Assembly: GCA_900659855.1 (NCBI GenBank)
Contig: CAACVI010000012.1
Coordinates: 256,532-320,531 of the forward strand
Direction of reading: 5' to 3'
DNA: 64,000 nucleotides
From: Candidatus Desulfarcum epimagneticum
Lineage (GTDB): Bacteria; Desulfobacterota; Desulfobacteria; Desulfobacterales; CR-1
The notes below the pieces were generated by a model, which worked only from the letters and a program-made list of their open reading frames with translations, did not search any database and had not been told where the DNA came from. The translations under genes were made by a program, and so were the position numbers. Shown here piece by piece: positions 445 through 54,790 of the stretch. The number at the start of each line of letters is the position of its first letter. The first letter of the stretch is position 1.

Positions 445-497
445 TCAATTAAAAATAACCGCTGGAGCGCCGTAGATCGGATTTTTTACAACGCCAT
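445..497. repeat. Half copy (one arm) of the ~150-bp palindromic intergenic element
   Basis: TCAATTAAAAATAACCGCTGGAGCGCCGTAGATCGGATTTTTTACAACGCCATC aligns with the right arm of the full copy at 35207..35356. Confidence 0.7.
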
Positions 498-502
498 CAA
501 AA

Positions 503-745
503 TCATGCTTTCACTTTTTCATATAACGTTTCAGGCGCGATATCCGCCCCATTGGGCCATGATATAGTTCCGCCCTCTATGACGGCCTTTTTAAAAAAAC
601 TTTTATTCTTCAAGGGGAAAAAAACCGGGCCTTTGGCAAGGTAATCAGAAAAATCCACATCCCCGGACAGCCCGTTATCGAATGTGACGTGATAAACATA
701 TCCCCCTCTATAATTTATTTTTGTCACATCATTCATATTCCACAT
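503..745 (-). CDS. DUF2442 family protein (putative TA-like pair with the upstream DUF4160 gene)
   Basis: 80-aa ORF. The sequence ...[28 protein letters not shown]....[23 protein letters not shown] is typical of DUF2442. It lies 10 bp downstream of the DUF4160 gene. Confidence 0.8.
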
Positions 746-755
746 GGTTTTCTCC

Positions 756-1016
756 TCATTTTAACGGATCAATTTTTTTAAGCGCCCGGCTTTCTCTGGC
801 CAATTTCCAATTATCTTCAAGCTCATAAACGTGAAGGTCGATCCATTCCCGAACGAGCTTGGTCGCCGTCCTTGATGACAGATCCCCATTGACAATGTTG
901 CCCTGAAAATCAAACATCGCTTTTTTCCCGGAATATTCAGCATGAAAATGCGGGGGGCTATGCTCATCGTGAAACATTCTTATAATTATTCCGAAAAACC
1001 TTGATATTTCAGGCAT
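756..1016 (-). CDS. DUF4160 family protein
   Basis: 86-aa ORF. The N-terminus [28 protein letters not shown] is the DUF4160 signature. Confidence 0.8.
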
Positions 1017-1141
1017 ATAAAATCCTTTATAAAAAATCCAAATTTGTCTCCGCCATCCAGCGGCGTCAGGATGAGTGATGGTTTGAGTCTCAATCTACCA
1101 CGCCAACCGCCGTTTTTCAATATGAAAAGAAAAACCCCCGG

Positions 1142-3149: not shown

Positions 3150-4130
3150 ATGGTGGAGAATTCAAAAACAAATTTGACGACATGGATTAAAAAGAAAACA
3201 ATCATGACCCTCCCAAAAACCGCCACCATTCAACAAATCGCCCGGGACCTGTGGCTCATATCCCCGGATCTCGGCCGGGCCGGGTTTTCGTCTTTCATCA
3301 GCGCCTGGCTTTTGAAAAAAAAACAAAAAACCTTTCTCATCGACGTCGGGCCGGCCTCCGGGATTCCCCAATTGGCGGCGGCCCTTTCGGATCTGGGCGT
3401 CAAACGCCCGGACGCGATTTTTCTGACCCATATTCACCTGGATCACGCCGGCGGCGCCGGTCATTTCGCCGCGCTTTTTCCGGGCGCCCCCATCTTCTGC
3501 CACCCATCGGCCATCCGCCATCTCGCCGACCCGGCCTCCCTGTGGGAGGGAAGCGTCAAAGCCCTTGGCGAGGTCGCCGAAATGTACGGCCCTGTGAGGC
3601 CCGTGCCGGAAAACCGGCTTTTTAACGCCCTGTCATTTGGGGAAAAGGAGATATCGGTTCTTGAAACCCCGGGGCACGCGCCGCACCACGTGTCGCTTCT
3701 GGCCGGCTCCCGGCTTTTCGCCGGGGAGTCCGGGGGCGTTTTCATAGATTTGGGGGACGACTACTGGCTCAGACCTGGAACCCCGCCCCGTTTTTTTCTT
3801 GAAAAAGCCCTTAAAAGCATCGAAACGCTTCAATCCGTTCCCCACGATCTGGCCCTTTACTGTCATTTCGGATGGACCCGGCGCCTGCCCCGTCTTTTGG
3901 AGCGTCACAAAAGCCAGCTTCTCCTGTGGGCCGACGTCATCGGGGAAGAGATGGACGCCGCGAACGGCCCCGGCCTGGTCTCCCGCTGTTTCGAGCGGCT
4001 TTTGAAAGAAGACCCTTGTCTGTCTGCCTGGGACAGATTGGAGCCGGGGACCCGCGAAAGGGAGCGGTTTTTTATGGAAAACAGCGTGAGGGGATTTGTG
4101 GGGTTTCACAGGGCCGGAAAGGGGGAATAG
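3150..4130 (+). CDS. MBL-fold metallo-hydrolase
   Basis: 326-aa ORF with THIHLDHAGGAGH (HxHxDH) and a later TPGHAPHH motif. The start may be the internal Met at 3204 (MTLPKTATIQQ). Confidence 0.8.
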   Translation: MVENSKTNLTTWIKKKTIMTLPKTATIQQIARDLWLISPDLGRAGFSSFISAWLLKKKQKTFLIDVGPASGIPQLAAALSDLGVKRPDAIFLTHIHLDHAGGAGHFAALFPGAPIFCHPSAIRHLADPASLWEGSVKALGEVAEMYGPVRPVPENRLFNALSFGEKEISVLETPGHAPHHVSLLAGSRLFAGESGGVFIDLGDDYWLRPGTPPRFFLEKALKSIETLQSVPHDLALYCHFGWTRRLPRLLERHKSQLLLWADVIGEEMDAANGPGLVSRCFERLLKEDPCLSAWDRLEPGTRERERFFMENSVRGFVGFHRAGKGE

Positions 4131-5251: not shown

Positions 5252-5485
5252 TTATTTTAATGACTCCAAGGCGTTAATAAGTTCCCTTGGCTCGAAAACA
5301 GGCAACTGCGATTTTTTAAAATCAGCCGCGCTTCTTGTCACAATATACCCGGCCCCCGCATGAACAGCCGCCTCATGCGGCGCCGCGTCCTCAAAATCCT
5401 TGAATTCCGAGTTTACCGCGCGTAAGAATTTGAAAAATTCATTTTTCTTTAATTCCGGGGAAAAAATATGAAATCCCCCCGTCAT
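5252..5485 (-). pseudogene. PIN-domain (VapC-like) C-terminal remnant
   Basis: 77-aa ORF ending ...DFEDAAPHEAAVHAGAGYIVTRSAADFKKSQLPVFEPRELI, which is a typical PIN C-terminus. No PIN N-terminal acidic motif is present, and its 5' end overlaps the 3' end of the MBL gene. Confidence 0.5.
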
Positions 5486-6392
5486 TCAAAAGATCAAGAT
5501 GATGCCCCAGCATGATGTCGTCCCACATATATAAAAAAGAGCGCATGGGCTCTTTCACATTTGATTTGTTTTTAAAAAATATTCCCTTTTCCACAATGTC
5601 ATCCCGGCCCGCTCCCCGCTCAAGCATGTCATCAATCATCCGTTCACGCTCCATGATTTGGCCAAGCGCCCAATCCCAGCTTTCTTGAATCTTTGAGGCG
5701 CGTATTCCGCCATGACTGGTGAGCAGGATTTTCACGTCCATTTCTTTGAGCCTGAAAATGGATTCCATGAGATCTTTCAAGTCGCAGTCTTCCCAGCCAT
5801 ACCAGGGCCCGAAAGGGTCGATTCCCATGTCGCCGGTGAACAGGGTTTTTTCATCCGGAAAATAAAAAGACATATGCGAGGGCGAATGCCCGGAGGTCTT
5901 GACGGCCCTCATCTTGACTTCGGCTCCGAAAGATTCGCCGTGATCGTATGTGGAAAAATCCGTCACTTCCCGGTAAGCGGTTTCATTCACGGAAAATGCC
6001 TCCCACTTCTCATCAAGACCGCGCGCGCCCGCCGTGCGCTCCACAAAATAGGGAAGACTGGAGAGATATTTCTCCTCGCCTTTCGGAATCAGAAGCTCCG
6101 CCTGTGAATGCTCCAGAACACGGGAGCCCCATGTTCCATGGTCCAGATGATAATGGGACACGATCGCCATATCCGGCCGCTCCTGCTTGAGCAGGTCCGC
6201 CGTCTCATCCAGCCCCATATTGGCGTCTATCAGTATTTTTTTGCCCGGCGTTGACACAATCAAGCCCGAACACGCCCGGAAAGCGCTCATGGACGCGGGC
6301 TCTATATAAACAATTTGATCCGTCAAAGCGGTTCTTTTCATTTTTTCTCTCACAATCCTTGATAAACTCGTAAAAAATAGATCAGACGCCAT
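5439..6392 (-). CDS. MBL-fold metallo-hydrolase
   Basis: 317-aa ORF with SHYHLDHGTWG and a later SGHSPSH. The first 11 codons (MASDLFFTSLS) are encoded by a repeat-element remnant, so the true start is probably Met18 (ATG at 6341, MKRTALTDQ). Confidence 0.8.
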   Translation of the reverse strand: MASDLFFTSLSRIVREKMKRTALTDQIVYIEPASMSAFRACSGLIVSTPGKKILIDANMGLDETADLLKQERPDMAIVSHYHLDHGTWGSRVLEHSQAELLIPKGEEKYLSSLPYFVERTAGARGLDEKWEAFSVNETAYREVTDFSTYDHGESFGAEVKMRAVKTSGHSPSHMSFYFPDEKTLFTGDMGIDPFGPWYGWEDCDLKDLMESIFRLKEMDVKILLTSHGGIRASKIQESWDWALGQIMERERMIDDMLERGAGRDDIVEKGIFFKNKSNVKEPMRSFLYMWDDIMLGHHLDLLNDGGISYFFPGIKEK

Positions 6393-6393
6393 C
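6361..6393. repeat. Collapsed remnant of the palindromic element (both termini, core deleted)
   Basis: GATAAACTCGTAAAAAATAGATCAGACGCCATC is the End1 TIR followed directly by the End2 terminus. Confidence 0.55.
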
Positions 6394-6479
6394 TTAATTT
6401 AAACGACCTGAAAAAACAACTGTTTTCAGAAATGTCCAGAGGAGGTTAAAGGCGGGGTTGGTATTTGAACAATTGAACA

Positions 6480-7830: not shown

Positions 7831-8023
7831 GGATGTGAACGGTCCTTTTTTGTCATGTCAAGATGAATCCTCATCCGTTCTTACAGACTCAATGTTTTTT
7901 ATCTTCCCGCCAGCCGGTCGATCGTCGCTTCAACGTCATATGCGGCAATGCTCAAAAGTTTGTAGATTATTTTATGAATGGCTTTATTGAATTGACGCGA
8001 CAAATATTCGATTCCATATTTTT

Positions 8024-8380
8024 TTAGAGTGTTAAGTATTTGTATAATTGCCTGCATGAAGCGTCAATTTCATTTTGCCGGCTCTCATTGTCATGATAAA
8101 TTAATGGAGCTTCGTATTGAATGTCATATCCCATCAACAGCTCTTTACCAAATTTCAAAACATCGCCCGAAGGGAAAGAGTTATTATATAGATCGTTAAT
8201 GATATATCCACCAAGAGCGTGACATGAAGACGCATGCTTTTTTATTGTCCGCTTTGACAACTTTTTTTCATTTTCCAAATAAAAAAGAAATCTGTCAAAT
8301 ATTTCGACCAGACTTTTTGAAGTTTGATAGCAATCATCATCGACTTCCCAATCTTTAATCCATTCTTGTTTATTGATCAT
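8024..8380 (-). CDS. Hypothetical protein (AT-rich orphan)
   Basis: 118-aa ORF immediately downstream of the XRE regulator. The LSKRTIKKH segment faintly recalls integrase N-terminal SAM-like domains. No confident assignment. Confidence 0.4.
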   Translation of the reverse strand: MINKQEWIKDWEVDDDCYQTSKSLVEIFDRFLFYLENEKKLSKRTIKKHASSCHALGGYIINDLYNNSFPSGDVLKFGKELLMGYDIQYEAPLIYHDNESRQNEIDASCRQLYKYLTL

Positions 8381-8470
8381 GATTCCGATTCAGCCATTTG
8401 TTAAAATATTACCGGAGGCTCCTGAATCTACCCTCATCCGCTGAAGCTCCATAAGGCTTCTTTCTCTGTC

Positions 8471-8839
8471 TTAGAAGTCATCGCGCGCCGCTTTGGATTT
8501 TTTGCGAACAGACTTTGGCAGAAGCGCCAGCTTTTCCCTGGTTTGACGCAGGTATCTCGTCATCGCGCTTTCATCGGCGTCAAACAGTTTCACGCCGACA
8601 ATGGCCGCCGCTTCGAACACGGCCCCGATTTCACATTTGAGGTTGCCTTTTTCAATGCGTTGCAGCAACCCTCTGGAAATACCCGCGCGATCGGCCAATT
8701 CCTGCGCTGAAAGCCTGCGCTCATGACGCGCTTCGCGGATCAACGCGCCGAGCAGGGCGGCCGCGTCGCGGCTATAGCGCGAGTAGGCGCGTGTGATGGA
8801 CTTTGGCATCATTTTTCCTTTGGTTCGCATATAGACCAT
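8471..8839 (-). CDS. XRE-family HTH regulator (HipB-like antitoxin type)
   Basis: 122-aa ORF. LLGALIREARHERRLSAQELADRAGISRGLLQRIEKGNLKCEIGAVFEAAAIVGVKLF is a Cro/C1 HTH. An 11-bp perfect hairpin lies upstream at 8915..8949. Confidence 0.8.
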   Translation of the reverse strand: MVYMRTKGKMMPKSITRAYSRYSRDAAALLGALIREARHERRLSAQELADRAGISRGLLQRIEKGNLKCEIGAVFEAAAIVGVKLFDADESAMTRYLRQTREKLALLPKSVRKKSKAARDDF

Positions 8840-9186
8840 AAAATATCCCGGCGCTCTTTCTGTGAATCACACGATATTGCATTTTTATCAGACAGTCAAG
8901 ACTAATTTGATCCGCATATAGCCCATAAGCCTTTCCTGTGGGCTATATGGAGACCACCGGCTTGTGTTTTTTAGCATTCGGAATCCAAAGCGTTTGTCCG
9001 GCCTCTTTTTCTTTTATAGTCAGCCAGTCCCGCAATGTGTCCAAAACGCCGCGCTTTTGCGATATGTCTTTTATCATTTGTTATAAAAACGGCATGATTC
9101 ATCATAGCCAAGGTATGTGTGTTTCAGACTTGACTCCGCTTTTCATGCGGCCATAGATCCACTGCGGAATCATGCCGACAGGGGCG

Positions 9187-10122
9187 CTATCCACCGCTGA
9201 AAAGGGGGTAAAAACCGGCGCCTAAAAACATAATGCCTGTTATTGTTAAAGCCAGTCCCGCGAATATGGCAATCAGATATTCAATGACGATTTTTCGGCT
9301 GTTTTTAGAAATCAGAGCGATTGAAGCGGTTTTTCCCGATATGGCAAGCATAACCACTATTGATATTGTGAAAGCCATGCCGATGGCGATAGCGATCCCC
9401 AGCAAAATTCCCAGCCCGATCAAATTCATTGACAATGCAAACAACATTGTTATCACCACGGCGGGGCATGGAATAACGCCCACCGCAAGAGCAAAAACCA
9501 CGGGATTGGCATATTCCCGGGCAAGCCCTTTTTTGTTTTGTTCTTTTTGGGGCTTTTCTTTTTTTATCAGTTTATAAACGCCGTGAAAAAAAATCCCCAG
9601 CCCAAGACAGGTGATGGCGCTGTAACTGACGATTTGGGTGATGTGGCTGACATTTTCAAGGTTTCGGACAACGCCCGCATTTAAAACAAAACGCACAACA
9701 AGCACAAAAACAATGCCTGAAATGCCATGGAATAGAGCCATGAGATTGCTTAACAGCAGCCCCTGCGCATATGTGGGGTGTTTTGCAAACACATATGACA
9801 GCGCCATGGCCTTTCCGTGCCCGGGACCCGCCGCATGAAGGACGCCGTAAGCAAACGCCACGACGGCAAGAAGAATGATCGGTAAAAAACTTTTCTCGGC
9901 TTTGGCTTTTTTGACCAGCGATGTCATTTTTTCTTTTAAATGCTTTTGCCAGACGTTTATCTTCATGAAAAATTTATTTTTAAAAAAAGAAGGCGCGGAG
10001 AGCGCAGGACGTTTTTCGGGTTTTGAGATAAACGGATTTTCCGCGGCGGGCGCAAGGTGGGCGACAGAAGACAATGCCGTATATATTGATAATAAAATCA
10101 ATCCGATGATAATTTTTTTCAT
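9187..10122 (-). CDS. NicO/RcnA-like nickel/cobalt transporter permease
   Basis: 311-aa polytopic ORF with the HAAGPGHGKA motif characteristic of the NicO/RcnA (COG2215) family. It overlaps the upstream DUF1007 gene by 4 bp. Confidence 0.75.
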   Translation of the reverse strand: MKKIIIGLILLSIYTALSSVAHLAPAAENPFISKPEKRPALSAPSFFKNKFFMKINVWQKHLKEKMTSLVKKAKAEKSFLPIILLAVVAFAYGVLHAAGPGHGKAMALSYVFAKHPTYAQGLLLSNLMALFHGISGIVFVLVVRFVLNAGVVRNLENVSHITQIVSYSAITCLGLGIFFHGVYKLIKKEKPQKEQNKKGLAREYANPVVFALAVGVIPCPAVVITMLFALSMNLIGLGILLGIAIAIGMAFTISIVVMLAISGKTASIALISKNSRKIVIEYLIAIFAGLALTITGIMFLGAGFYPLFSGG

Positions 10123-10715: not shown

Positions 10716-10941
10716 TCGTTTTTTTTGCTCCGCAAAAACAAATTCGCTTAAACCTGGCTTTCCGTTATGCATAATATTCACCTTTTTCCATTTAATATGT
10801 TTAAAAGCAGCGCAACTGTCGTCTGGGGCCACAAGACACGGTTTTGATTTTGCGGCGCAGTAAATCTTATCCGTTTTCTGAATCAGTGGCGCGAAAACGG
10901 CATATGACCGAGTTGTTTTGTTGTAATTTCATTCCATAACT

Positions 10942-11091
10942 GATAAACTCGTAAAAAATTCGATCTACTGTGTTGCAGCGCTTATTTTTAATTGAGGCAT
11001 ACTACATGTATTGCCTCAATTAAAAATAACCACTACGCCTTGTATATCGAACTTTTTACGACGCTGTCCCGTGATTTTTTACGAGTTTATC
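10942..11091. repeat. Full 150-bp copy of the palindromic MITE-like element
   Basis: GATAAACTCGTAAAAAATTCGATCTACTGTGTTGCAGCGCTTATTTTTAATTGAGGCATACTACATGTATTGCCTCAATTAAAAATAACCACTACGCCTTGTATATCGAACTTTTTACGACGCTGTCCCGTGATTTTTTACGAGTTTATC. An extra module (AAGCTTGGGATGG..TTAAAGTTAAAAATCCGA) follows to about 11135. Confidence 0.85.
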
Positions 11092-13481: not shown

Positions 13482-13610
13482 TTCATAAAATCGTAAAAAG
13501 TTTGACATACAAGATGTAGTGTTTTTTTATGAGAGATGGCATACATATAGTATGCCGGCCGAACAAAAGCCCACTGCAACGCAGCAGATCGGATTTTTGA
13601 CGATGCTGTC
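13482..13610. repeat. Variant (type-2) copy of the palindromic element, directly upstream of the RAYT-like gene
   Basis: ...AAATCGTAAAAAGTTTGACATACAAGATGTAGTG...GATGGCATACATATAGTATGCCGG...CACTGCAACGCAGCAGATCGGATTTTTGACGATGCTGTC. It shares the apex GGCATAC-N5-GTATGCC and arms with the copy at 32708..32863. Confidence 0.7.
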
Positions 13611-26294: not shown

Positions 26295-26822
26295 CAGACA
26301 CTTCTGTGATAATAGATTTTGATGGCGTCGTAAAAAATCCGATCTACTGCGTTGCGGCGCTTATTTTGAATTGAGGCATACTACATGTATTGCCTCAATT
26401 AAAAATAAGCGCCACGCCTTGTATATCGCATTTTTAACTTAGCCATCCCAAGCTTTTTTACGAGTTTATCAGATTTTCTGAGAAAGAAAAACAAAAAAAA
26501 TTCGCTTCTGTGGCGAGTCAGAGAAAACAACGACTGTTTTATGTCGTCTGTCACCTTATTTGAATTGAAGTGTGGCGCGAAGACAGAAAAACACTCCAAA
26601 GATATTGGGAAACTTCTGAAATGGATCGAAACAATTCCCTTTGACAATGAGATCGCTGAAATTGCTTCGATAATATATCAGCGCCTGAAATTGAAGCATA
26701 AACTGATCGAATTCAGAGACATTTTTATCGCCGCCACCGCCATTTCGGAGAATCTTTGCGTTGCGACATTGAATATAAAGGATTTTGAAAGGATAAAGGA
26801 TATAGACTTAATAAAAATTTAA
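26273..26822 (+). pseudogene. vapC: vapC (PIN toxin) interrupted by a 150-bp MITE-like element
   Basis: The N-terminal 16 codons are MVNTRVLTDTSVIIDF (26273..26320). After removing 26321..26477 the frame continues LRKKNKKNSLLWRVRENNDCFMSSVTLFELKCGA...FIAATAI...ATLNIKDFERI, giving a complete PIN domain. Confidence 0.8.
26321..26470. mobile_element. 150-bp MITE-like palindromic element inserted in vapC
   Basis: The termini are GATGGCGTCGTAAAAAA ... TTTTTTACGAGTTTATC. It is flanked by direct repeats (A)GATTTT at 26314..26320 and 26471..26477. Confidence 0.85.
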
Positions 26823-28916: not shown

Positions 28917-29067
28917 GATAAACTCGTAAAAAGATTGCGGGACAGCGTCGTAAAAAGTTCGATCTACAAGGCGAAGCGGTTATTTTTGAGCGAGGCAATA
29001 CACTTAGTATGCCTCGCTCAAAAATAACCGCTTTAACGCCGTAGATCGGACTTTTTACGGCGCTGTC
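28917..29067. repeat. Full copy of the palindromic element (with compensatory stem changes)
   Basis: GATAAACTCGTAAAAAGATTGCGGGACAGCGTCGTAAAAAGTTCGATCTACAAGGCGAAGCGGTTATTTTTGAGCGAGGCAATACACTTAGTATGCCTCGCTCAAAAATAACCGCTTTAACGCCGTAGATCGGACTTTTTACGGCGCTGTC. Confidence 0.85.
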
Positions 29068-32707: not shown

Positions 32708-32863
32708 GATAAACCCGTAAAAAATGGATCGGACGGCATCGTAAAAATTCCATATGCTAAAATTTAAGCTACAAGGCGTAGTGGTTTTTTGAGAGTGAGG
32801 CCATACATATAGTATGCCGAAGGAACAAAAAACCACTGCGACGCATTTTTCTACGATGTCGTC
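32708..32863. repeat. Variant (type-2) copy of the palindromic element
   Basis: GATAAACCCGTAAAAAATGGATCGGACGGCATCGTAAAAATTCC...CTACAAGGCGTAGTGGTTTTTTGAGAGTGAGGCCATACATATAGTATGCCGAAGGAACAAAAAACCACTGCGACGC...CTACGATGTCGTC. Confidence 0.75.
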
Positions 32864-35007: not shown

Positions 35008-35089
35008 TCAAACCCTCCTTATGTTCCGGATTTTTATTTAAAAAAAATCCCCGCATGAGCGGCGTCATAAAATTTCATATGGTAAAATT

Positions 35090-35199
35090 GATGAACTCGT
35101 AAAAAAGCCGATTTTGGACTGTTTCCAAAATTCAGGTCTAATAATTTCAGTTGTTTATACAGACAAAAAATCTGTTTTTTGATTTTTTACGAGTTTATC
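35090..35199. mobile_element. 110-bp short variant sharing the element TIRs, with 6-bp target duplication
   Basis: GATGAACTCGTAAAAAAG...different internal sequence...TTTTTTACGAGTTTATC. AAAATT lies on both flanks (35084..35089 and 35200..35205). Confidence 0.75.
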
Positions 35200-35206
35200 A
35201 AAATTT

Positions 35207-35356
35207 GATGATCTCGTAAAAAAGCCTGGGATGGCTAAGTTAAAAATTCGATATACAAGGCGCAGCGGTTATTTTTAATTGAGGCAATACATGTAGTATG
35301 CCTCAATTAAAAATAACCGCTGTAACGCAGTAGATCGGATTTTTTACGACGCCATC
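35207..35356. repeat. Full 150-bp copy of the palindromic element (inverted orientation)
   Basis: GATGATCTCGTAAAAAAGCCTGGGATGGCTAAGTTAAAAATTCGATATACAAGGCGCAGCGGTTATTTTTAATTGAGGCAATACATGTAGTATGCCTCAATTAAAAATAACCGCTGTAACGCAGTAGATCGGATTTTTTACGACGCCATC. This is near-identical to the reverse complement of 26321..26470. Confidence 0.85.
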
Positions 35357-44800: not shown

Positions 44801-45576
44801 CGCTGATCAGCAACGGCATTCATTTGAAAAAACGCATCGTGTGCGAAGTTCCCCTGGAGGCGGACGGCTCCGTGTACATCAAGGTCCCGTCCAAGACCCC
44901 CATGTCCATCCAGAGCTTAAACAAAGACAAAATGGCCCTTCGCCAGTCGGCCCGGCTCTACTTCTTCGCGCCCGGGGAGAAATTCACCATATCGCCCTCC
45001 CCCAGCGAAACCTTTCAAACCTGCGGCGCCTGCATGGGCTCCATGTCTAAAAGCCCCGAAAAACTCTTCGGCCCGACGAACATGTTCTCCGGCCAGGAAA
45101 AGGTCCGGGCCATCGCCCTGGCCAAGGGCGAGCCTCAAGAATACGGAATCGATCCCGACGACCGGATCTCCATTGATTTCGTCCGGAACATCCAGCCCAT
45201 TTTCGATAAAAACTGCGCGGCGTGCCACTCCGGGGAAAATCCCCCGGCCGGGCTTTCCCTTTCCGGTGAAAAAACGACCTATTATAACGCGGCCTACGAA
45301 AATCTCATGGAGCTGGAAGACCCCCAAAGCGGCTGGCATTCCCGGAAGAAGTACGTGAATGAGCGCGGCGCGCTGGCCATTGAAAGCTATCTCATGGAAA
45401 AAATCCTCGGCCGGGAGCTGAAAGCCCGCCGGGACCTGTCCGGAGATTTTCCCCATCCGGGCAAACGCCTGATGAAAAAACGCAAAGTCAACGTCCCGCC
45501 GCTGACCCGGGGCGAAAAAATGACACTGGTCAGATGGATCGACATGGGCGCGGTTTACAGGGGGGTGAGGGAATGA
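41860..45576 (+). CDS. Large secreted multi-domain protein with three PSCyt-like modules and haem c motifs (possible HzsA-related architecture)
   Basis: 1238-aa ORF with a signal/anchor (AVFWVLILSSAALFSTHFFAG). Canonical CxxCH occurs at CQTCH and CAACH. Non-canonical spacings are C-x4-CH (CMSPNCH) and C-x10-CH (CSARDENGAFICH), each preceded by an F..V.P.. context as in the planctomycetal cytochrome domain. The C-terminus has ...LVRWIDMGA. The long middle region looks beta-rich. Confidence 0.6.
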   Translation: MTFGANRTRLKNRAVFWVLILSSAALFSTHFFAGRKDAGAAENAGAEAFEYYREHVAPILSSTCSARDENGAFICHGTPDLASETAKKDPGDYHSAPYSQSEYCQTCHRGIKRKFIFGLDPRGEISTDAQFLLSYQQAKKRALHLKIPFAKILRMPLAAQGGGFGQYHAGGEIFESLSSADHQKLSEWVRLENESARESEKSVGEAERFFGEQVLPVYARNGCMSPNCHIFNHSSFFPSPGMDVDDLSTPLADRFSAEQRSFNRMTSKGLIQSNVYLTGDVEQSRILKKNIPIEKGGVIQRGGNNQFFSGPDDPDYQIMKKWLELERKEVISRLRIAGKPVDPSQVGKVRGIVFVRTDVKNHRRYLDVGKYMPGGDLFLLKLKDGETLESARGEPVNLTARFHPGKKADIREPDVRYDAGAVIFSMRIGEQDRLNVYEIRLDENLDYVEGSFRRLTHGPDLVNGIKVHYTDPTYVPDSADKAALIGGHNLDKADIVFASNLNGGVVQSVERGIVGEADGGTRNVIFDFDRPETDGSFEGKRIYIVDGANKGQWRTIARFQNRLFTPEKRSYITVDRPFPNPVDHSVIYVIERDPETQPGFLPSYSMYGMKYPKPGEEKALYDKTISRITYGIAQELDLSVRTTGEVFYSGQRSFTDKYERPIFHMTSCRRHLDTRFSFPTHHGNRSQVLVYADNHELPSGIDIHVGLDPDNLWEAGNLSVSDHQMGPGLEARNPHDFSTGFFDEDGFPIVDGPKIINTRFNFKNGKQPSHTRFVFKKMALFPLRGPRAVSRTGFSPGGAFKDSVPLPDGDILVSHSPAPINHLDPGAAPDFDLYIVRPDPSFHTPGGKGVPKVRKIRLSAASAAGLSDVQAYPVYVRMKPKINAARRARRDHLIRPPEMPDNDHRPAIYLERNYLLIDAIMDDPSPVGKNVAYATNPLTGKKTAPEDEVKYVRMVEVLPVHPDDAAPVASGLIANRDPESTLISNGIHLKKRIVCEVPLEADGSVYIKVPSKTPMSIQSLNKDKMALRQSARLYFFAPGEKFTISPSPSETFQTCGACMGSMSKSPEKLFGPTNMFSGQEKVRAIALAKGEPQEYGIDPDDRISIDFVRNIQPIFDKNCAACHSGENPPAGLSLSGEKTTYYNAAYENLMELEDPQSGWHSRKKYVNERGALAIESYLMEKILGRELKARRDLSGDFPHPGKRLMKKRKVNVPPLTRGEKMTLVRWIDMGAVYRGVRE

Positions 45577-48500
45577 TGAACACACACACACGCAAATCGA
45601 ATCGGACCAGGGCCTTTTTGCCGGCGCTTCTTTTCCTGGCGGCCCTCTTTGTCTTTCATCCGGGCGAGCGCCCCCGCGCGGCCGGCCCCGGTGCCGCCGG
45701 AGTCTCCAACCCCTCCGTATACGGGATTTTAACCAGCGACCGGTGGGCCTTCGGCGCCTCCTATGAGCGGCGGGACCTGGAGCCGGTGAAAAACAACAAT
45801 CCCTACCCCGAGCCCCAGCCCGAACGGGACCATCCCAAGGCCATGGAGATCACTCCGGACGGCAAAAAACTCTACATCGCCCTGGCCGGAAACGAGGCCG
45901 AGCCGGGAAACCAGGTGGCGGTGTTTGACGTGGAGAAAAAAACAGTCGTCAAAAAAATCAGGGTGGGCTCAAGCCCCTGGCACATCGCCATGCATCCCAA
46001 GGGAAGATTCGCCGTGGTCATCAACCGGCTCTCCAATTACGCCTCGGTCATCGACACGGCCCTGGACGAGCCGGCCGGGGAAATCCCCCTGGACTTTTAC
46101 TGCCAGTATATGGTGTTCAACAAAAAAGGGACCCGGGCCTATGTGAGCAACCGCTACCTGGGCCAGGCGCTGGTCCTGGATGTCAAAGCCGGACGGGATC
46201 GCTTCAAGGCCCGGATGCAAACCCTGGGGGGCTTTGATTTGAAAACCTTTGAAAAAAAGGTTTTTCCGGCTTTAACAAAATCCTGCGGCGCCGCGGCCTG
46301 CCACGGCGTGTCCCGGGGGGACTTTTACGCGGGGGAAAATGTGTTAAAGGCCTTTTTTTCCGCCATTGAAAATTCCACTCCCGGCGACCCCGACGACAGC
46401 CTTCTGCTCAAAGCCGTCCGGCCCCGGGCCGAAGGGGGATTCGCCGACGATCTGTCCGGGGCCAACTTCCACGCCGGAGGAAAGGTCGCATGGTCCAAAA
46501 AGGATCGCGGATACAAAAAAACCGCCCGGTGGATCTCCGAAGCCTCCGAAGGCCCGGGGATTCCCGTGGGGAACTTCGGCTCCAAGCCCTTCAGCCTTCA
46601 GCTCAGCCATGACGAAAAATACCTGTACGTCGGCAACCTGGGGACCCAGGACATCTCCATCATTGATCTGAAACAAAAAAAAGAGGCGGGCGGGATTTAC
46701 ACCCAGAACGTGGTTCTGGACCTGGCTCTTTTTCATGACAAAAAAACCGACAAAGAGATGCTTTTCGCCCTTTCCATGGGGCTGGGTTTCGGCGCGGCCC
46801 GGGAAAGGGACCCCTTTGGGGGCGAGACCGAGGACGCGCGAAATCCGGCGGCCCAGTTCAGCGTCCGCCGGGACATCGACACCACAGAGCCCCTTCCTGT
46901 CCATCAGCAGAAAATATTGGGGGCATTCGACGCCATCGACGGCACGGCGGCCTTTAAAATGGCGGACATTCAAAACGATGTCATCGCCATTGACGCCGGG
47001 GCGCTGAAAATTCCCAAAAAAATCCCCTCGCCGCGCCTGGACTATGTGTTAAAGGCCAACCGGTACGAGGCCCACAGGGCCTGGACCCGGTACACGTCGG
47101 ATTCCGCCGAGGTTCTGCCCCAGGAGCCCAGCGGGGACATCCCGCCGGAGCTTCAGCGGGTCATCGGCGCCTTCCCGGAGGCGGCCAGAGTCTGCGGCGA
47201 CCGTCTCTACACCGTGATGCTGGGCTCTTATGAGCTGGTGGAATGGAAAATCAACCCCTCGGCCGCCGAGCCCTCGGACTGCCTGGAGCCCGTGGCCGTC
47301 TATCCCACCGGGATCATGCCCCGGGAAGTGGTCTGCGGGCCGGCCGAAACCGTCGCGGAAGGCCTTCTTTTTGTGAGCAATTTCCTCGGGGAGACCGTGA
47401 GTGTCATTGACCGGAAGTCCGGCGAATCCAAAGAACACGTCGTGGGAAACCTGTCCCGGCCTTTCCCGGACAGCAACGCGGAGCGGGGCCAGATGTTTGT
47501 CAACACCGCCGTTTTCTCCGTGGACGGGGACACCTCTTGCATGTCCTGCCATATTTACGACACCAGCGACGCCCGGGGATGGGGCGCCGGACAGGCCATC
47601 GCCCAGACGCGGGACGGCAAATTCGTCAACGGCGGGTCCCTGGCCATTCCCCAGATCAAAAATCTCTTCGCCACCCAGCCCTTTTATTTCGAGGGCACCC
47701 ACACCTGCTTCGACGCCCAGTTCGACGACGCCCGCGAGCATGTGGCCCTTCAGGGGTTTCTGGAGCCCAACCCCCAGGGCGACTTCACCGGGGTGTCCCA
47801 CCCGGTCCCGCCGGGCCAAAGGCCCGAAGAGCATGAGGAGATCCAGGACAAAATGTCCACGGACTCCTTTGGCGACCTCTACTTTGATTTAAGGGAGCGC
47901 CGGGATGAGTTCATACGCCGGGCCTCCATGAAATATTTTGGAAAGGCGTTCAACTTCCGGGATTTCCAGCGCTTTATCGGGGAATTCCAGGCCGCCGAAA
48001 CCCGGCTTCTGCCCAATCCCCACGACCCGGCCAACCCGTCCGTGGCGCGGGGAAAACGCCTCTTCAACCGGTTGGACACCGGCTGCGTGACGTGCCACAG
48101 GCCCCCGGAATTCACCAACAAAACCGAAACTCTTTCCAACAACCATGAGCGGGTCCTTCCCTCCATCATCAGCTTCACCCGAAGGGAAAAGGCCTTCACC
48201 CTGGTGGGGCCCCACTGGATGGACTCCGTCAACGGATACAAGCGGGACCTGGAATACTGGGAAAAGGGCCGGGTGGAGAGACAGGAGGGCCATATGACCG
48301 TCTTTCCCTTAAGGGGCCTGTTTGACCGCCCCTTCGCCTTTCTGCACCACGGCCGGGCCCGGTCCGTCCGGGAGGTCATCGCCTCCCCGGACCATTACGC
48401 GCTGAGAAAATTCAAGTATCCCCCGCTGAGGGGAGGAGAAGAAATCCGGGAGGACCGCCGGGAGCGGGGATTCAATGAGCTGAGCTTTATCGAGGAGCGG

Positions 48501-48590
48501 ACCTATGTCCCGGACACCCACGGCGGAACCTCCCATTTGAGCGCCGTTCAGATCAGGGATCTGGAAAATTTCCTTCTTTCCATCGAATAA
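45573..48590 (+). CDS. Secreted YVTN-type beta-propeller fused to a di-haem cytochrome c peroxidase/MauG-like domain
   Basis: The start ATG 45573 overlaps the upstream stop (ATGA). Signal peptide RAFLPALLFLAALFVF. Propeller repeats are present (LYIALAGNEAEPGNQVAVFDV..., PWHIAMHPKGRFAVVINRLSNYASVIDT, LYVGNLGTQDISIIDL). There is an inserted C-x4-CH (CGAAACH). The C-terminal CCP-like pair is SCMSCHIYD and GKRLFNRLDTGCVTCHRPPEFTN, followed by ...LENFLLSI. Confidence 0.7.
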   Translation: MMNTHTRKSNRTRAFLPALLFLAALFVFHPGERPRAAGPGAAGVSNPSVYGILTSDRWAFGASYERRDLEPVKNNNPYPEPQPERDHPKAMEITPDGKKLYIALAGNEAEPGNQVAVFDVEKKTVVKKIRVGSSPWHIAMHPKGRFAVVINRLSNYASVIDTALDEPAGEIPLDFYCQYMVFNKKGTRAYVSNRYLGQALVLDVKAGRDRFKARMQTLGGFDLKTFEKKVFPALTKSCGAAACHGVSRGDFYAGENVLKAFFSAIENSTPGDPDDSLLLKAVRPRAEGGFADDLSGANFHAGGKVAWSKKDRGYKKTARWISEASEGPGIPVGNFGSKPFSLQLSHDEKYLYVGNLGTQDISIIDLKQKKEAGGIYTQNVVLDLALFHDKKTDKEMLFALSMGLGFGAARERDPFGGETEDARNPAAQFSVRRDIDTTEPLPVHQQKILGAFDAIDGTAAFKMADIQNDVIAIDAGALKIPKKIPSPRLDYVLKANRYEAHRAWTRYTSDSAEVLPQEPSGDIPPELQRVIGAFPEAARVCGDRLYTVMLGSYELVEWKINPSAAEPSDCLEPVAVYPTGIMPREVVCGPAETVAEGLLFVSNFLGETVSVIDRKSGESKEHVVGNLSRPFPDSNAERGQMFVNTAVFSVDGDTSCMSCHIYDTSDARGWGAGQAIAQTRDGKFVNGGSLAIPQIKNLFATQPFYFEGTHTCFDAQFDDAREHVALQGFLEPNPQGDFTGVSHPVPPGQRPEEHEEIQDKMSTDSFGDLYFDLRERRDEFIRRASMKYFGKAFNFRDFQRFIGEFQAAETRLLPNPHDPANPSVARGKRLFNRLDTGCVTCHRPPEFTNKTETLSNNHERVLPSIISFTRREKAFTLVGPHWMDSVNGYKRDLEYWEKGRVERQEGHMTVFPLRGLFDRPFAFLHHGRARSVREVIASPDHYALRKFKYPPLRGGEEIREDRRERGFNELSFIEERTYVPDTHGGTSHLSAVQIRDLENFLLSIE

Positions 48591-48617
48591 AAATAAAAAA
48601 AGAGAAGAGCGCCGAGC

Positions 48618-49442
48618 ATGAAAAAAACCATTTGCGTGATTTTGTTTTTGTCCCTGGCCGTCTGGGCCGCCGACTCCAACGCCGCCGGGCCCGATCGCCA
48701 AAGGGATTCCTCCCCCATGATCCTGGTTTACGCCGGGGATTTTATCATGGGACAGGGCGAAACCCAAAAAACCGTCCATGTGAAAAGTTTTCACATCGAC
48801 AAGTATGAGGTGTCCAACGCCCAGTACCGCGTGTTTCTGGACTGGGTGAAAAAACATTCCGACAAAACCGTCCGGCGCCCGGATCAGCCCCGGGGCAAAG
48901 ACCACACCCCGCGGTTCTGGAAGCCCTTTCGCCCCGCCATTTTTAAAAAAACCGGGATGGCCGCCCTTCAGCGGTTTGACGAAAAAATCTTCACGGAAGA
49001 CCGCCGTCCGGTGACGGGAATCGACTGGCACGACGCCTACGCCTACGCCAAATGGGCCGGGAAACGCCTTCCCACCGAGGCGGAGTGGGAAAAGGCGGCC
49101 CGGGGCGTCACGGGGTCGCGTTGGCCCTGGGGGAACCGGTGGGTCTTTGAAAACTGCAACAGCGGGGGCTACGAATGGAAAGGGGAGCGCGACGGCCACA
49201 TCTACCCGGCGCCGGTGGACGCCTATCCCCAGGGAAAAAGCCCCTATGGCGTTTACAACGCGGCGGGAAACGTCTCGGAATGGGTGGACGCCGATTTTGA
49301 TTCCGAAAGGGGCCTGAAAACGGTCAAGGGCGGGGGGTCGGACTCCTATCCCAGCTCAGTGGCGCCGTCGGCCCGGCGGGGCCGCGAACCGGATTTCAGG
49401 CATTTCACCCTGGGGTTTCGATGCGCGAAGGACGCGAACTGA
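48618..49442 (+). CDS. Secreted FGE-sulfatase/SUMF1-domain protein
   Basis: 274-aa ORF with signal peptide MKKTICVILFLSLAVWA. FHIDKYEVSNAQY...PVTGIDWHDAYAYAKWAGKRLPTEAEWEKAARG...GNVSEWV...GFRCA. Confidence 0.8.
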   Translation: MKKTICVILFLSLAVWAADSNAAGPDRQRDSSPMILVYAGDFIMGQGETQKTVHVKSFHIDKYEVSNAQYRVFLDWVKKHSDKTVRRPDQPRGKDHTPRFWKPFRPAIFKKTGMAALQRFDEKIFTEDRRPVTGIDWHDAYAYAKWAGKRLPTEAEWEKAARGVTGSRWPWGNRWVFENCNSGGYEWKGERDGHIYPAPVDAYPQGKSPYGVYNAAGNVSEWVDADFDSERGLKTVKGGGSDSYPSSVAPSARRGREPDFRHFTLGFRCAKDAN

Positions 49443-49463
49443 TTTTTTAAAACAGGGATTTCG

Positions 49464-50369
49464 ATGGGAATGACACCAATGGGCAAAATAAGACATGCGA
49501 TGATCTTTTTATTTGTTTCCGGCGCCTTTCTGGCCCTTTCGCCGGCCGCTTCGGCGGAGGACCGGCTTCCGGACGGCGTTTCTTTCAAAAACGGAAAGTA
49601 TATCAGCGAAAAAGACCAGGCCCAGATGGCTTTCATCCCGGAAGGGGCCTTTGTCATGGGAAGCCGGTCGGGAAACGACAATGAAAAACCGGCCCACGCC
49701 GTGTGGCTGTCGGATTTTTACATGGACATTTCCGAGGTGAATAACGCCCGTTTTGAAAAATTCGTGAAAGAATCGGGATATCGGCCCCAGGGCCCCTGGC
49801 GTCGGGGATACGCCCCGGGCCAGGGAGACTATCCCGTCCGGTTCGTGACCTGGCATGACGCCAACGCCTACGCGGACTGGGCCGGGAAGCGCCTTCCCAC
49901 CGAGGCGGAGTGGGAAAAGGCGGCCCGGGGTGAAAAGAGCCTCGTTTACCCCTGGGGAGACGACTGGAACCCCCGGTTCGTGGAAAACCCGCAAAACGAC
50001 TTTTCACCCGTAAAGACAGACGCCTTTCCCGAGCGGGCCGCCCCTTACGGCTGCCTGGGAATGGGCGGAAATGTCTGGGAATGGGTGGCCGACTGGTACG
50101 ACCGGTTTTATTACCGGGAATTTGAAGACGGATCAGTGGCCGAAAACCCCGCCGGACCCGAAGACGGCGCGCCTCCCCTGAAACGTTTCATGGACGCCGG
50201 AGCCGGGGCCGGAAACGAGAGAAGCACACTAAAGGTCATCCGGGGCGGAGGGAGCTGGGGCCGTTTCGCGAAGGAAAACGCCCGGACGTCCAAAAGAATG
50301 TGGGCCAATCCATCCTACTGGCTCAACGACACGGGATTCCGGTGCGCCGTTTCGGCGCCCCGTAAATAA
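49464..50369 (+). CDS. Secreted FGE-sulfatase/SUMF1-domain protein (paralogue)
   Basis: 301-aa ORF with signal peptide ...IFLFVSGAFLALSPAASA. FYMDISEVNNARF...PVRFVTWHDANAYADWAGKRLPTEAEWEKAARG...GNVWEWV...GFRCA. Confidence 0.8.
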   Translation: MGMTPMGKIRHAMIFLFVSGAFLALSPAASAEDRLPDGVSFKNGKYISEKDQAQMAFIPEGAFVMGSRSGNDNEKPAHAVWLSDFYMDISEVNNARFEKFVKESGYRPQGPWRRGYAPGQGDYPVRFVTWHDANAYADWAGKRLPTEAEWEKAARGEKSLVYPWGDDWNPRFVENPQNDFSPVKTDAFPERAAPYGCLGMGGNVWEWVADWYDRFYYREFEDGSVAENPAGPEDGAPPLKRFMDAGAGAGNERSTLKVIRGGGSWGRFAKENARTSKRMWANPSYWLNDTGFRCAVSAPRK

Positions 50370-50503
50370 ACGACAAACCCGCGCTCCCCAACGAAAAAAC
50401 GCGTGTGATCCGCCTGGAGGACAATGAGATGACGCGATACGGTCACAGTCGAGACATTCATAGCGAAAGTCGCATGATTGTGAAAAACGTTTCACCCAAT
50501 ATT

Positions 50504-50676
50504 GACAGCATCGTAAAAAATCCGATCTACTGTGTTGCAGCGCTTATTTTTAATTGAGGCATACTACATGTATTGCCTCAATTAAAAATAACCACTACGC
50601 CTTGTATATCGAATTTTTTACGACGCTGTCCCGTGATTTTTTACTACGCTGTCCCGTGATTTTTTACGAGTTTATC
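50504..50676. mobile_element. Palindromic MITE-like element, 173 bp (150-bp unit plus internal 23-bp tandem duplication), with 6-bp target duplication
   Basis: The core is identical to copy 10942..11091. The duplicated segment ACGCTGTCCCGTGATTTTTTAC lies near the right end. AATATT flanks lie at 50498..50503 and 50677..50682. Confidence 0.85.
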
Positions 50677-50722
50677 AATATTCCCCGATTGACATAGTAC
50701 CAAAAAATGGTACAATAATATT

Positions 50723-52501: not shown

Positions 52502-52551
52502 CACGGCGTCTCAAAAACAACCGCGCCTTGCCTGTCGAATTTTGCGACGCC
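52502..52551. repeat. Degenerate remnant of the palindromic element (core hairpin deleted)
   Basis: ACGGCGTCTCAAAAACAACCGCGCCTTGCCTGTCGAATTTTGCGACGCCG parallels GAYGGCGTCGTAAAAA...AACCGC..GCCTTGTATATCGAATTTTTTACGACGCC. Confidence 0.5.
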
Positions 52552-52606
52552 GTTTAAACGGTTAAGTTGAATGGCGGAGGCGTCTTTTCGCCCCCGCCGG
52601 TTTCAT

Positions 52607-54577
52607 CTACGCGACGTCAAGCTGCCGCCGGTCGGACATATCCATCAACACGCGCTCTTTGGATCTGTCCAGACCCAGCTCTTGTCTCTTCTTGTCAATG
52701 TGGGCGATCATCATCTTCGCCATTTCATAGGGATCCGGAGTGAATCCCCATTTCCCCAGGCCCTGTTTTTCCAGGCCGTTGAACAGATACTCGTGGAATT
52801 TGGTCTCCTCCACGATGGGAAAGGTCACGCCGAAGACCGTGAACACGCCCGAGGCCACGAAGTACTGGCCGATGCAGATGGCCTTTTCGCTCATCCACTC
52901 AGGGGCCGCGCCCGCCACAGGAAGATCGGCGATGCTGTCTCCAAGGCCTCCTTCCCGAACCATTTCCGAAGCGGCGATGAGGATGCGGCTGTTGTCCACG
53001 CATGATCCCATTCCCAAAACAGGCGGCATTCCAACGGTCTCACACACTTCCCTCAATCCGTCCCCCGCCAGGATGGCCGACTCGGGCGTGGTGAGCCCGG
53101 CCTTGGCCAGCGCGATCTGGGAACAGCCGGTCTGAAGCACCAGAACGTCATTTTTAATCAGCTCTTTGACCAGCTCCACATGGACCCAGTCCTGCTTCAT
53201 CCTGGGATTGGTGCATCCCACCACTCCGGCGACGCCCCGTATGCGCCCATTGATAACGTTGTCGTTCAGGGGCCGGTAGGAGGAACGAAACGATCCGCCC
53301 AGCATGTAGCTGATGTACTCGTGGGAGAACCCGTGAACGCCGACGTTGACATTCTTGGGAATCTCGATCCTGGCGGTCCGGTTCTTGAACCGCGAGATGG
53401 CCCGGATGATGATCTCATCCGTGGCGGCCTTGGGATCATGCTCGTGGAACTCGATGTGCTCGACGCCCTCGATCTTGCACCTGGGATTGGTGGTGAACAG
53501 GGGCGTGTCGTAACAGTCGGCCACCTTGCCCAGACCCTGCTTGATGCACTGGACATCCACAGCCATGGCGTCCACAGCCCCGGTGACCAGAACGGTCTCG
53601 GTGGACATGAAGTTTCCGGCGTGGGGAACGCCGTGGCGAACCAGCATCTCCGCGCCCGAGCAACACATTCCCGCCAGGTTGATGCCCTTGGCGCCGGCCT
53701 TTTCAGCGGCTTCGATGAGGGTGGGCTCCTGGGATGAGGCGAGAATGGACTCAAACAGGTTGGGCTCGTGTCCGTGGACGATGACGTTGACCATGTCCTC
53801 TTTCAAAACCCCCATGTTGACTTCCACGCTGACCGGGGAAGGCGTGCCGAAGAGAATGTCCGATATCTCGGTGGCCACCATGGATCCCCCCCATCCGTCG
53901 GAAAGGGCGGTTCGGCTGCACTGTTTGACGATATTTTCGTAATCCTGGTCCACGCCCATGTGGGAGCGGTGCATCAGCTCCATGATTTCCCGCATGGCCC
54001 CCCGGGGAACGATGCCCATTTCGCGCCATGTCTCCAGGGTCTTTTTCGGAACCCGTTTGGCGAAGGGGATTTCCCCGTCCACCTGGGTGTAGGTGCGCTC
54101 CAGCTCTTTGTAAAGATCCTCCGCGATGTCCATGAGTTCCCGGTCCTGGGTCTCAATGTCGATGGATTCCGCCACCGCTTTGAGCTTCGCGGGATTCTTG
54201 ATGCGGTAATCCTTGATTTTTCCCTTGATCACATCCCGGAACATATCCAGCATGCTCATGCCGTGGTCCGTGTGGGCGGCTCCCCCGGCGGCCACCATCC
54301 TGGAAAAATTCCGGGCCATGATGGTGTCGATGGTGGCGCCGCAGACCCCCACTTTTCCGTAAGGATCCCGGGCGTTGAGGCGGCAGGGCCCCATGGCGCA
54401 GTGCTTGCAGCAGGCCGAATCGGCGCCGATGGGACAGGCCTTCATGTTCATGGCCCGGTCAAAGGCGGTCTCCACCCCGTCTTTCTTGGCTTTCTCAAGC
54501 ATCTGGGCGGTGGCCTCGCAAGTGGTGACGCTGGAAATGTCCAGCTCTTTTGGCGCTTTCGTTTTGTCTTTTCCCAT
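52607..54577 (-). CDS. cooS: Anaerobic Ni-Fe carbon-monoxide dehydrogenase catalytic subunit
   Basis: 656-aa ORF. N-terminal D/B-cluster cysteines (ACPIGADSACCKHCAMGPCRL...GVCGA). C-cluster region motifs are present (...HGHEP..., ...GMCCSG..., ...GCTNP..., ...GSCVDNSR). Confidence 0.9.
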   Translation of the reverse strand: MGKDKTKAPKELDISSVTTCEATAQMLEKAKKDGVETAFDRAMNMKACPIGADSACCKHCAMGPCRLNARDPYGKVGVCGATIDTIMARNFSRMVAAGGAAHTDHGMSMLDMFRDVIKGKIKDYRIKNPAKLKAVAESIDIETQDRELMDIAEDLYKELERTYTQVDGEIPFAKRVPKKTLETWREMGIVPRGAMREIMELMHRSHMGVDQDYENIVKQCSRTALSDGWGGSMVATEISDILFGTPSPVSVEVNMGVLKEDMVNVIVHGHEPNLFESILASSQEPTLIEAAEKAGAKGINLAGMCCSGAEMLVRHGVPHAGNFMSTETVLVTGAVDAMAVDVQCIKQGLGKVADCYDTPLFTTNPRCKIEGVEHIEFHEHDPKAATDEIIIRAISRFKNRTARIEIPKNVNVGVHGFSHEYISYMLGGSFRSSYRPLNDNVINGRIRGVAGVVGCTNPRMKQDWVHVELVKELIKNDVLVLQTGCSQIALAKAGLTTPESAILAGDGLREVCETVGMPPVLGMGSCVDNSRILIAASEMVREGGLGDSIADLPVAGAAPEWMSEKAICIGQYFVASGVFTVFGVTFPIVEETKFHEYLFNGLEKQGLGKWGFTPDPYEMAKMMIAHIDKKRQELGLDRSKERVLMDMSDRRQLDVA

Positions 54578-54675
54578 CTAAAACCTCCTTTGGCTTGGGT
54601 GCGTCTCTTCATGAGACTGTTTATTGTCGCCGGCTGATGAAAAAAAGCATTCCGCGCGGCATGCTTCTAACCCAA

Positions 54676-54703
54676 AATATAACACTTTGTGGCACAAAGT
54701 CAA
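54676..54703 (-). promoter_or_regulatory. Putative cooS promoter with embedded 17-bp palindrome
   Basis: On the minus strand, TTGACT (54703..54698) is followed by 16 bp and then TATATT (54681..54676). The spacer contains the perfect palindrome ACTTTGTG-G-CACAAAGT (54684..54700). Confidence 0.45.
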
Positions 54704-54744
54704 TGGAACAAAATCAAACGCTCAAAATGAAATCAAGAAAACAT

Positions 54745-54790
54745 GATAAACCCGTAAAAAACGGCGGACGACATCGTCAAAAATCCCGGC
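54745..54790. repeat. Partial (one-end) copy of the type-2 palindromic element
   Basis: GATAAACCCGTAAAAAACGGCGGACGACATCGTCAAAAATCCC aligns with the first 45 bp of the copy at 32708..32863. Confidence 0.6.

Follow-up and report, generated by a model that had tools for sequence, protein, structure and literature searches.

The palindromic repeat and its copies

The window analysed here is a 64,000-nt stretch (contig CAACVI010000012.1, positions 256,532 to 320,531) from Candidatus Desulfarcum epimagneticum, an uncultured Desulfobacteraceae bacterium. Its base composition is 58-60% G+C, apart from an AT-rich island at ~8-27 kb with 41-45% G+C. This island (~8000-27000) holds mobile elements, among them three insertion sequences and a Y1 transposase-like gene, along with nickel-transport-like genes and small unannotated open reading frames (ORFs), and is likely acquired or degraded DNA. 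Distributed along the window are copies of a palindromic element of 35-45% G+C, which measure 110-173 bp and are too short for a gene. The tally is 12 loci in 64 kb, namely five canonical copies (150, 150, 150, 151 and 173 bp), two diverged copies, one 110-bp mini-element and four remnants (Table 1). All 12 had been picked out in an initial annotation made from the sequence, to within a few bases, and alignment of the five full copies confirms the copy lengths, central hairpin and asymmetric sub-terminal arms described there. Three entries require revision. The variant entered at 13482-13610 is a real copy, although it starts at 13485 and lacks the outer right repeat; the remnant at 6361-6393 is a real locus, but an internally deleted copy and not a solo end; and 35090-35199, taken for a variant with the same core, has an unrelated core and is a separate 110-bp mini-element with its own target duplication.

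The terminal motif TTTTTTACGASNYNRTC, allowing up to two mismatches, matches the window 25 times versus 1.13 matches expected from shuffles, and all of these matches except the one at 58901 fall within the listed loci (24 of 25). A profile searched with nhmmer recovered seven full or variant copies with E-values of 4e-51 to 1e-35, together with the remnants at 445-502 (4e-12), 54739-54786 (3.5e-4), 52510-52553 (1.4e-3, weak) and 6357-6466 (0.024). Pairwise identity among copies spans 59% to 96%, a range that indicates several subfamilies as well as insertions of different age. The sequence GGCGCTGTTGTGATTTTATCAA at 12090-12115, directly past the stop codon of a gene encoding an Lcl_C-domain protein, was not detected by the profile search and may be a further, decayed right-end remnant.

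Structure of the element

The anatomy was read from the five full copies, aligned with two of them turned to the other strand. In this common orientation, the order is left end (L), left arm, central hairpin, right arm, inner right end (Ri), a spacer of 6-7 nt and outer right end (Ro). L reads GAYRGCRTCGTAAAAAAT and is followed by the left sub-terminal arm, CCGATCTACTGCGTTGCAGCG; the central hairpin is TTATTTTTAATTGAGGCATAC-TACAT-GTATTGCCTCAATTAAAAATAA; and the right side consists of the sub-terminal arm CGCTACGCCTTGTATATCGAA, Ri (TTTTTTACGACGCYRTC) and Ro (TTTTTTACGAGTTTATC). Terminal inverted repeats, GAYRRCNTCGTAAAAAA / TTTTTTACGANNYYRTC, are present, but the right end is the tandem of Ri and Ro and not a single repeat. 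The tips are nearly invariant, with a T before the left GA in 12 of 13 ends and an A after the right TC in 11 of 12. Ri and Ro lie 23-24 bp apart in window copies and ~33 bp apart in copies from a Desulfobulbaceae genome (locus L002, below), and copy 50504-50676 has three tandem right-end units, one extra unit of 23 bp. Such directly repeated end sites at one end are a feature of IS21-like or Tn552/B3-like elements.

The body of a canonical copy from L to Ri is a 127-nt near-perfect palindrome, with Ro outside the pairing. Folded as single-stranded DNA, copy 26321-26470 reaches -36.9 kcal/mol (z=-7.6), with L paired to Ri and Ro unpaired. In the L-Ri hairpin, scored over 12 copies drawn from three sources, pairing holds in 91.6% of cells, as against 36-47% with slid partners, and 16 pairs are changed on both sides, as against 2-6 in the slid controls. 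To illustrate, L and Ri co-vary, GATGGC occurring with GCCATC and GACAGC with GCTGTC, while Ro is constant; in two elements, L itself is of the Ro type. The central stem is wholly different between subfamilies and still self-complementary. In the members of subfamily B (13485, 32708 and position 2332 of locus L004), the core is not palindromic.

Target duplications and empty sites

This element is very probably a miniature inverted-repeat transposable element (MITE), that is, a small non-coding transposon family that has recently moved between genes. Family members occur in the window and in three further loci: L002, from Desulfobulbaceae UBA2775; L026, from Desulfobulbaceae S3730MH12; and L004, from a Mu-like prophage. 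Exact direct duplications of 6 bp (7 bp in one case) lie immediately outside L and Ro in six of the 11 two-ended copies. They read AGATTT(T) at 26321, AATATT at 50504 and AAAATT at 35090 in the window, and ATTATT, ACTCCT and AATGGT in L002, and all have the form ANNNNT. The chance rate of identical 6-mers at element spacing in the window is 5e-4 per element. With L and Ro as the sequences next to the duplications, both right-end sites must belong to the unit that moves.

Empty sites were found in L026, which is 92-95% identical to L002 at the nucleotide level and whose orthologous region was reached via HisG. Between hisI and hisG, L026 has a single ATTTTT where L002 has ATTATT on both sides of an element, and at the hisI-FKBP site it has a single ACTCCT and no element. 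At a third site, both loci share the AATGGT duplication, but L026 carries a 95-bp mini-element with a different core (~3290-3385) where L002 carries a 164-bp canonical copy (5486-5649). Either one family member was exchanged for another by recombination, or the site is a hot spot that was used more than once. The 95-bp element and the window mini-element at 35090-35199 are two elements with unrelated cores that share the family ends, which shows that the ends are the recognized part. An old solo left-end remnant, GATGGCGTTATAAAAAC..., is common to L002 (3432-3460) and L026 (~5418-5441), and in L002 a new full copy abuts its outer edge exactly. A similar end-to-end pair of elements occurs in the window at 35090-35356. 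These arrangements hint that insertions are drawn to existing element ends.

Taken together, the duplications and empty sites are what cut-and-paste or copy-in transposition by a DDE enzyme typically leaves behind, and the family is genuine, well-defined, recently active in at least one lineage and apparently uncatalogued. Local duplication is ruled out by the target duplications, the empty sites in a relative and the copies in other genomes, which also show that the family is not confined to this region. The same three lines of evidence bear out the initial annotation's interpretation of a dispersed, implicitly MITE-like palindromic family, and its view that the family has no named relative agrees with the comparisons given below. 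The target duplications, the doubling of the right end and the overlap with stop codons (below) had escaped that annotation.

Table 1. Copies, remnants and related elements of the repeat family in the window
Feature	Coordinates	Strand	Basis
Left-half remnant: left inverted repeat and sub-terminal arm, plus the beginning of the central hairpin	445..502	-	nhmmer E=4e-12
Internally deleted copy: GATGGCGTC..GATCTA plus outer right repeat TTTTTTACGAGTTTATC	6361..6393	-	motif/sequence inspection
Canonical copy, 150 bp; left repeat of outer type GATAAACTCGTAAAAAA; no target duplication	10942..11091	+	alignment, profile
Diverged copy, subfamily B; non-palindromic core; no Ro	13485..13610	-	alignment, profile
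Canonical copy 26321-26470 with direct duplication AGATTTT (26314-26320, 26471-26477)	26314..26477	+	alignment, flanks
Canonical copy, 151 bp; compensatory changes in central stem	28917..29067	-	alignment
Diverged copy, subfamily B; 9-bp deletion, 14-bp insertion	32708..32863	-	alignment, profile
Mini-element 35090-35199, 110 bp; same terminal repeats, unrelated core; duplication AAAATT	35084..35205	+	motif, flanks
Canonical copy, 150 bp	35207..35356	-	alignment
Canonical copy 50504-50676, 173 bp; right-end 23-bp units at 50614, 50637 and 50660; duplication AATATT	50498..50682	+	
Weak, GC-enriched right-half remnant	52502..52553	+	nhmmer E=1.4e-3
Right-end remnant (inner and outer repeat units)	54745..54783	-	motif, profile

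Distribution across genomes and a prophage

An exact-pattern scan for the canonical hairpin in 185,579 species-representative genomes returned only UBA2775, and a metagenome scan returned the same Desulfobulbaceae lineage. In L002, three full copies and additional remnants fall within 6 kb, between housekeeping genes. A pattern scan of viral contigs found two copies in L004 and otherwise chance 17-mers. L004 encodes the tail module of a Mu-like myovirus, including sheath, tube, Gp41_Mu, tape measure and GpP-like baseplate proteins, and the two copies (1736-2482) occupy the sheath-tube and tube-Gp41 gaps. BLAST searches of plasmid and phage collections gave no matches to the element, and no description of the family was found in the literature. 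Over its first 27 nt, the left end is almost the same in the Desulfobacteraceae window as in the copies from Desulfobulbaceae and the phage, a pattern that fits horizontal spread.

Placement at stop codons and in operon spacers

Five times, an upstream gene takes its stop codon exactly from the terminal TGA of an element. The thiolase gene ends on the terminal TGA (29068-29066) of copy 28917-29067, which fills the spacer between this gene and one encoding 124 aa, and the enoyl-CoA hydratase gene ends on that of copy 35207-35356 (35357-35355). The SNase gene in L002 and L026 likewise stops at the terminal TGA of an element, as do the tail sheath and tail tube genes of L004. The hisI gene is a sixth, somewhat different case: its stop is a TAA inside the duplication, and the protein ends ...VYGQ* as compared to ...VYGEK* at the empty site.

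A minus-strand, beta-oxidation-like operon (36.1 to 28.5 kb) has three copies in its spacers, all oriented along transcription, with the next start codon 22-45 nt past Ro. The outer right end of copy 32708-32863 lies 22 nt upstream of an ATG at about 32687. Elsewhere, copy 6361-6393 ends 21 nt upstream of the ATG of a metallo-beta-lactamase-fold gene, and the remnant at 54745-54783 lies ~170 nt upstream of a CO-dehydrogenase/prismane gene. The orientation is not fixed, since the L002 copies run opposite to transcription.

Both tips read TGA inward, so an insertion at the extreme 3' end of a gene still yields a stop codon, which would account for the build-up of copies exactly at stop codons and in short operon spacers. 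Insertions probably survive at sites where the TGA tips leave the gene with a stop codon and the ribosome-binding site downstream is undamaged. A preference for A/T-rich targets of the TCA-NNNN-TGA type may contribute as well. Copies in operon spacers are presumably co-transcribed.

Candidate transposition machinery

As a model, the transposase would recognize 17-bp terminal sites, T-GAYRRCNTCGTAAAAAA, of which one is present at the left end (L) and two or three in tandem at the right end (Ri, Ro). A staggered cut on insertion would produce the 6-bp target duplication ANNNNT, and the 127-nt palindrome between L and Ri would be carried as cargo.

Several observations weigh against reading the family as a MITE of this kind. 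Target duplications are absent from five of the 11 two-ended copies. Copy number and distribution are those seen in the window and in L002, L004 and L026, the window's own assembly lying outside the searched collections, and the viral, plasmid and phage searches returned nothing beyond L004. No autonomous element with the family ends, the full-length insertion sequence (IS) that the initial annotation had suggested seeking, was found in the window, in the other loci retrieved or in collections of viral, plasmid and phage sequences. The three IS elements of the window (IS630-family, IS4-family and rve/IS481-like with AAA_22) have ends unrelated to those of the MITE. The palindrome is kept by paired changes, which a DDE MITE does not need. 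Finally, the duplication reads equally well as 6 bp (with GA..TC tips) or as 4 bp (with TGA..TCA tips). Every target being A-NNNN-T, the empty sites do not separate the two lengths, and more than one transposase family would therefore fit.

Given that the element is a MITE, an integrase-type (rve) DDE transposase with multi-site ends, of the IS21 or Tn552/B3 kind, is a tentative candidate that we rate as somewhat short of probable. Multi-site ends combined with TG..CA tips are typical of rve transposases acting together with an AAA+ partner; the duplications of IS21 are 4-5 bp long and its end sites are repeated, and Tn552 has end units of 23 bp. The element resembles IS21, Tn552 and B3 in its directly repeated end sites and short duplications and, if the tips are read as TGA..TCA, in tips of TG..CA type; tandem end-sites and TG..CA-like tips would suggest an rve-type transposase with an AAA+ partner. 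Unlike them, it carries no transposase gene, and the searches turned up no autonomous relative that shares its ends. Tn552 generates 6-bp duplications and has a two-gene p480/p271 module (PMC3276174), and a 6-bp duplication is described as the footprint of B3/Tn552-family transposases, with TG-CA being the usual ends of Mu-/B3-like phages (PMC8705779). In the present element, unlike in Tn552/B3, tips of TG..CA type and a duplication of 6 bp are mutually exclusive readings.

The window has an rve module of its own at 21559-24223, which consists of three genes: a zinc-ribbon ORF at 21559-22005, one for an rve transposase that also matches Mu-transpos_C (22127-23407) and one for an AAA_22 ATPase (23417-24223). 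The top NCBIfam match of this transposase is IS481, below cut-off, and its top match in the PDB is IS5376 IstA. The rve and AAA_22 pair (22127-24223) is not bounded by MITE ends. A scan of viral contigs with the rve protein returned only relatives of 28% identity, which lack the motif. The likeness of the 35090 mini-element to the rve element at TTTCCAAA was rejected, as it falls within the range of shuffled scores.

A broader scenario can be drawn, in which a miniature derivative of a transposable-phage or Tn552/IS21-type two-protein system would be carried across Desulfobacterota orders by Mu-like phages, its palindrome co-opted as a co-transcribed hairpin and its TGA tips as stops, so as to reshape operon expression. 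We consider this composite unlikely.

Alternative explanations

The first alternative is that the sequence is a functional RNA or regulatory module kept for its structure, such as an intercistronic hairpin, a processing site, a promoter or a terminator, and is not a transposon at all. The covariation of the palindrome speaks for this, as do the three copies aligned with transcription in the beta-oxidation-like operon and the position of element ends 21-45 nt upstream of start codons. However, the L002 copies are oriented against transcription, the cores of subfamily B are not palindromic, and the target duplications and empty sites show mobility. A scan of the consensus revealed no convincing promoter or terminator signal, the hairpin being followed by A-runs and not U-runs. 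A comparison with Rfam, which the initial annotation had recommended, gave no family at gathering score and just generic long-hairpin (miRNA precursor) matches below threshold. The paired changes may also have another origin. Templated correction of quasi-palindromes is an established mutational mechanism that can produce them as well, so upkeep of the palindrome could reflect either this process during replication or selection on a DNA or RNA hairpin. A purely regulatory module is thus very unlikely, although a secondary, co-opted regulatory role beside mobility is possible.

An equally improbable alternative is a REPIN-like element, that is, a doublet of REP hairpins moved as single-stranded DNA by the RAYT-like (REP-associated tyrosine transposase) Y1 (HUH) transposase encoded at 12328-13260. 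The copy at 13485-13610 lies 220 bp upstream of this gene, and the genome encodes at least 10 paralogues of the Y1 protein (90-93% identity); the element in turn has a long palindrome with a strong single-stranded DNA fold, and its CTAC/GTAK motifs recall the GTAG motif of REP sequences. Against this, HUH/Y1 transposition leaves no target duplication, while six of 11 copies have exact ones that differ from each other. In addition, alignment against locus L003 shows that the conserved Y1 unit (12311-13344) ends 140 bp before the element, which starts at 13485; the copies in L002 and L004 have no Y1 gene nearby; and the match to the NCBIfam model REP_Tyr_transpos scores 67 bits, under its 80-bit cut-off. 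The link to the RAYT was rejected on the strength of the duplications and of the L003 alignment. In general terms, the family is like REP/BIME/REPIN sequences in being palindromic, intergenic and abundant, and a RAYT-like gene is present in the window, but it differs in its target duplications, its long terminal inverted repeats and its location outside the conserved flanks of that gene. The view that it is not REP/BIME, already expressed in the initial annotation, is upheld on these grounds.

The Y1 gene (minus strand) encodes a 310-aa IS200-like / RAYT-like transposase, 100% identical to VEN73801.1. Its paralogues in Ca. D. epimagneticum, at least 10 of them full, are ~90-93% identical, and more than 7,500 homologues occur across Desulfobacterota metagenomes at ~60-74% identity. 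The conserved unit, at ~1.03 kb, is twice the size of a classical IS200 or RAYT gene.

Least probable of all is a MITE derived from the IS630-family element of the window (Tc1/mariner type, TA target), for which the transposase gene at 13903-15150 and a loose likeness by eye of the IS630 end TAGTGCGTCGCAAATGAA to GACAGCGTCGTAAAAAAT (11 of 17 positions) can be cited, because no copy has a TA duplication, the duplications being 6-bp ANNNNT sequences that differ between copies, and a profile search found no similarity at the IS630 ends. Two further candidates were dropped: integron attC sites, there being no integrase and no cassette array and both orientations occurring, and palindromic elements derived from IS200/IS605 (PATE), which have neither terminal inverted repeats nor target duplications, while the present element has both.

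Named repeat families were considered as well. ERIC (or IRU) sequences of the Enterobacteriaceae and Yersinia are non-coding, MITE-like imperfect palindromes of ~127 bp that occur between genes and within operons in either orientation; they are co-transcribed as a long RNA hairpin and reported at TA targets. The present family shares with ERIC the ~127-nt palindrome, the lack of coding capacity, the location between genes and within operons and the occurrence in both orientations, but differs in having no sequence similarity, 6-bp ANNNNT duplications and, at one end, a further outer repeat in tandem. Correia elements (NEMIS/CREE) of Neisseria are MITEs of 100-155 bp with terminal inverted repeats that duplicate TA, are abundant near genes and affect the expression of neighbouring genes through their ends. 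The present family is alike in its size range, terminal inverted repeats and abundance near genes, but the Correia terminal repeat is absent, TA duplication is not seen and the hosts are Desulfobacterota. Core motifs of the named families, namely the ERIC2-primer core AAGTAAGTGACTGGGGTGAGCG, the Correia terminal repeat TATAGTGGATTAACAAAAA... and the boxA core CTACGGCAAGGCGACGCTGACG, each gave 0 matches at up to three mismatches, in agreement with the earlier judgement that the repeat is not ERIC, Correia or BOX.

Significance for genome annotation

The MITE family is a well-bounded repeat for the annotation of Desulfobacterota genomes and metagenome-assembled genomes, in which MITEs that go unrecognized fragment assemblies, lead to wrongly called starts and stops and produce AT-rich dips. 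The family is a marker of recent transposition both in marine Desulfobulbaceae and in a magnetotactic ectosymbiont that is uncultured, and its copies in a Mu-like prophage provide a tangible example of a phage that carries a MITE. Tips that form stop codons show one way in which densely packed operons can accommodate an insertion. The known workings of MITEs are unchanged by this family, which is of an ordinary kind and notable for its asymmetric multi-site ends and stop-forming tips.

Other features of the window

Two further mobile elements lie close together in the AT-rich island. An IS630-family element (~13865-15190), with a 415-aa DDE_3 transposase encoded on the minus strand (13903-15150), appears to have inserted at a TA within an ATP-grasp (D-Ala-D-Ala-ligase-like) gene, the N-terminus of which is found at 13703-13866 and the remainder at 15187-16947. 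An IS4-family element (~16926-18291), with a 389-aa DUF4372 plus DDE_Tnp_1 transposase (17070-18239) and inverted repeats CACTGGTGTCCGGTT / AACCGGACACTAGTG, sits between the ATP-grasp gene and a gamma-glutamyltranspeptidase gene. The region at 41860-50369 encodes two very large proteins (1238 and 1018 aa), whose domains are of the hydrazine-synthase-alpha-like, beta-propeller and cytochrome c types. Next come two formylglycine-generating-enzyme-like genes in tandem, which have in common an 81-nt stretch that is 93% identical (49025-49105 and 49850-49930).

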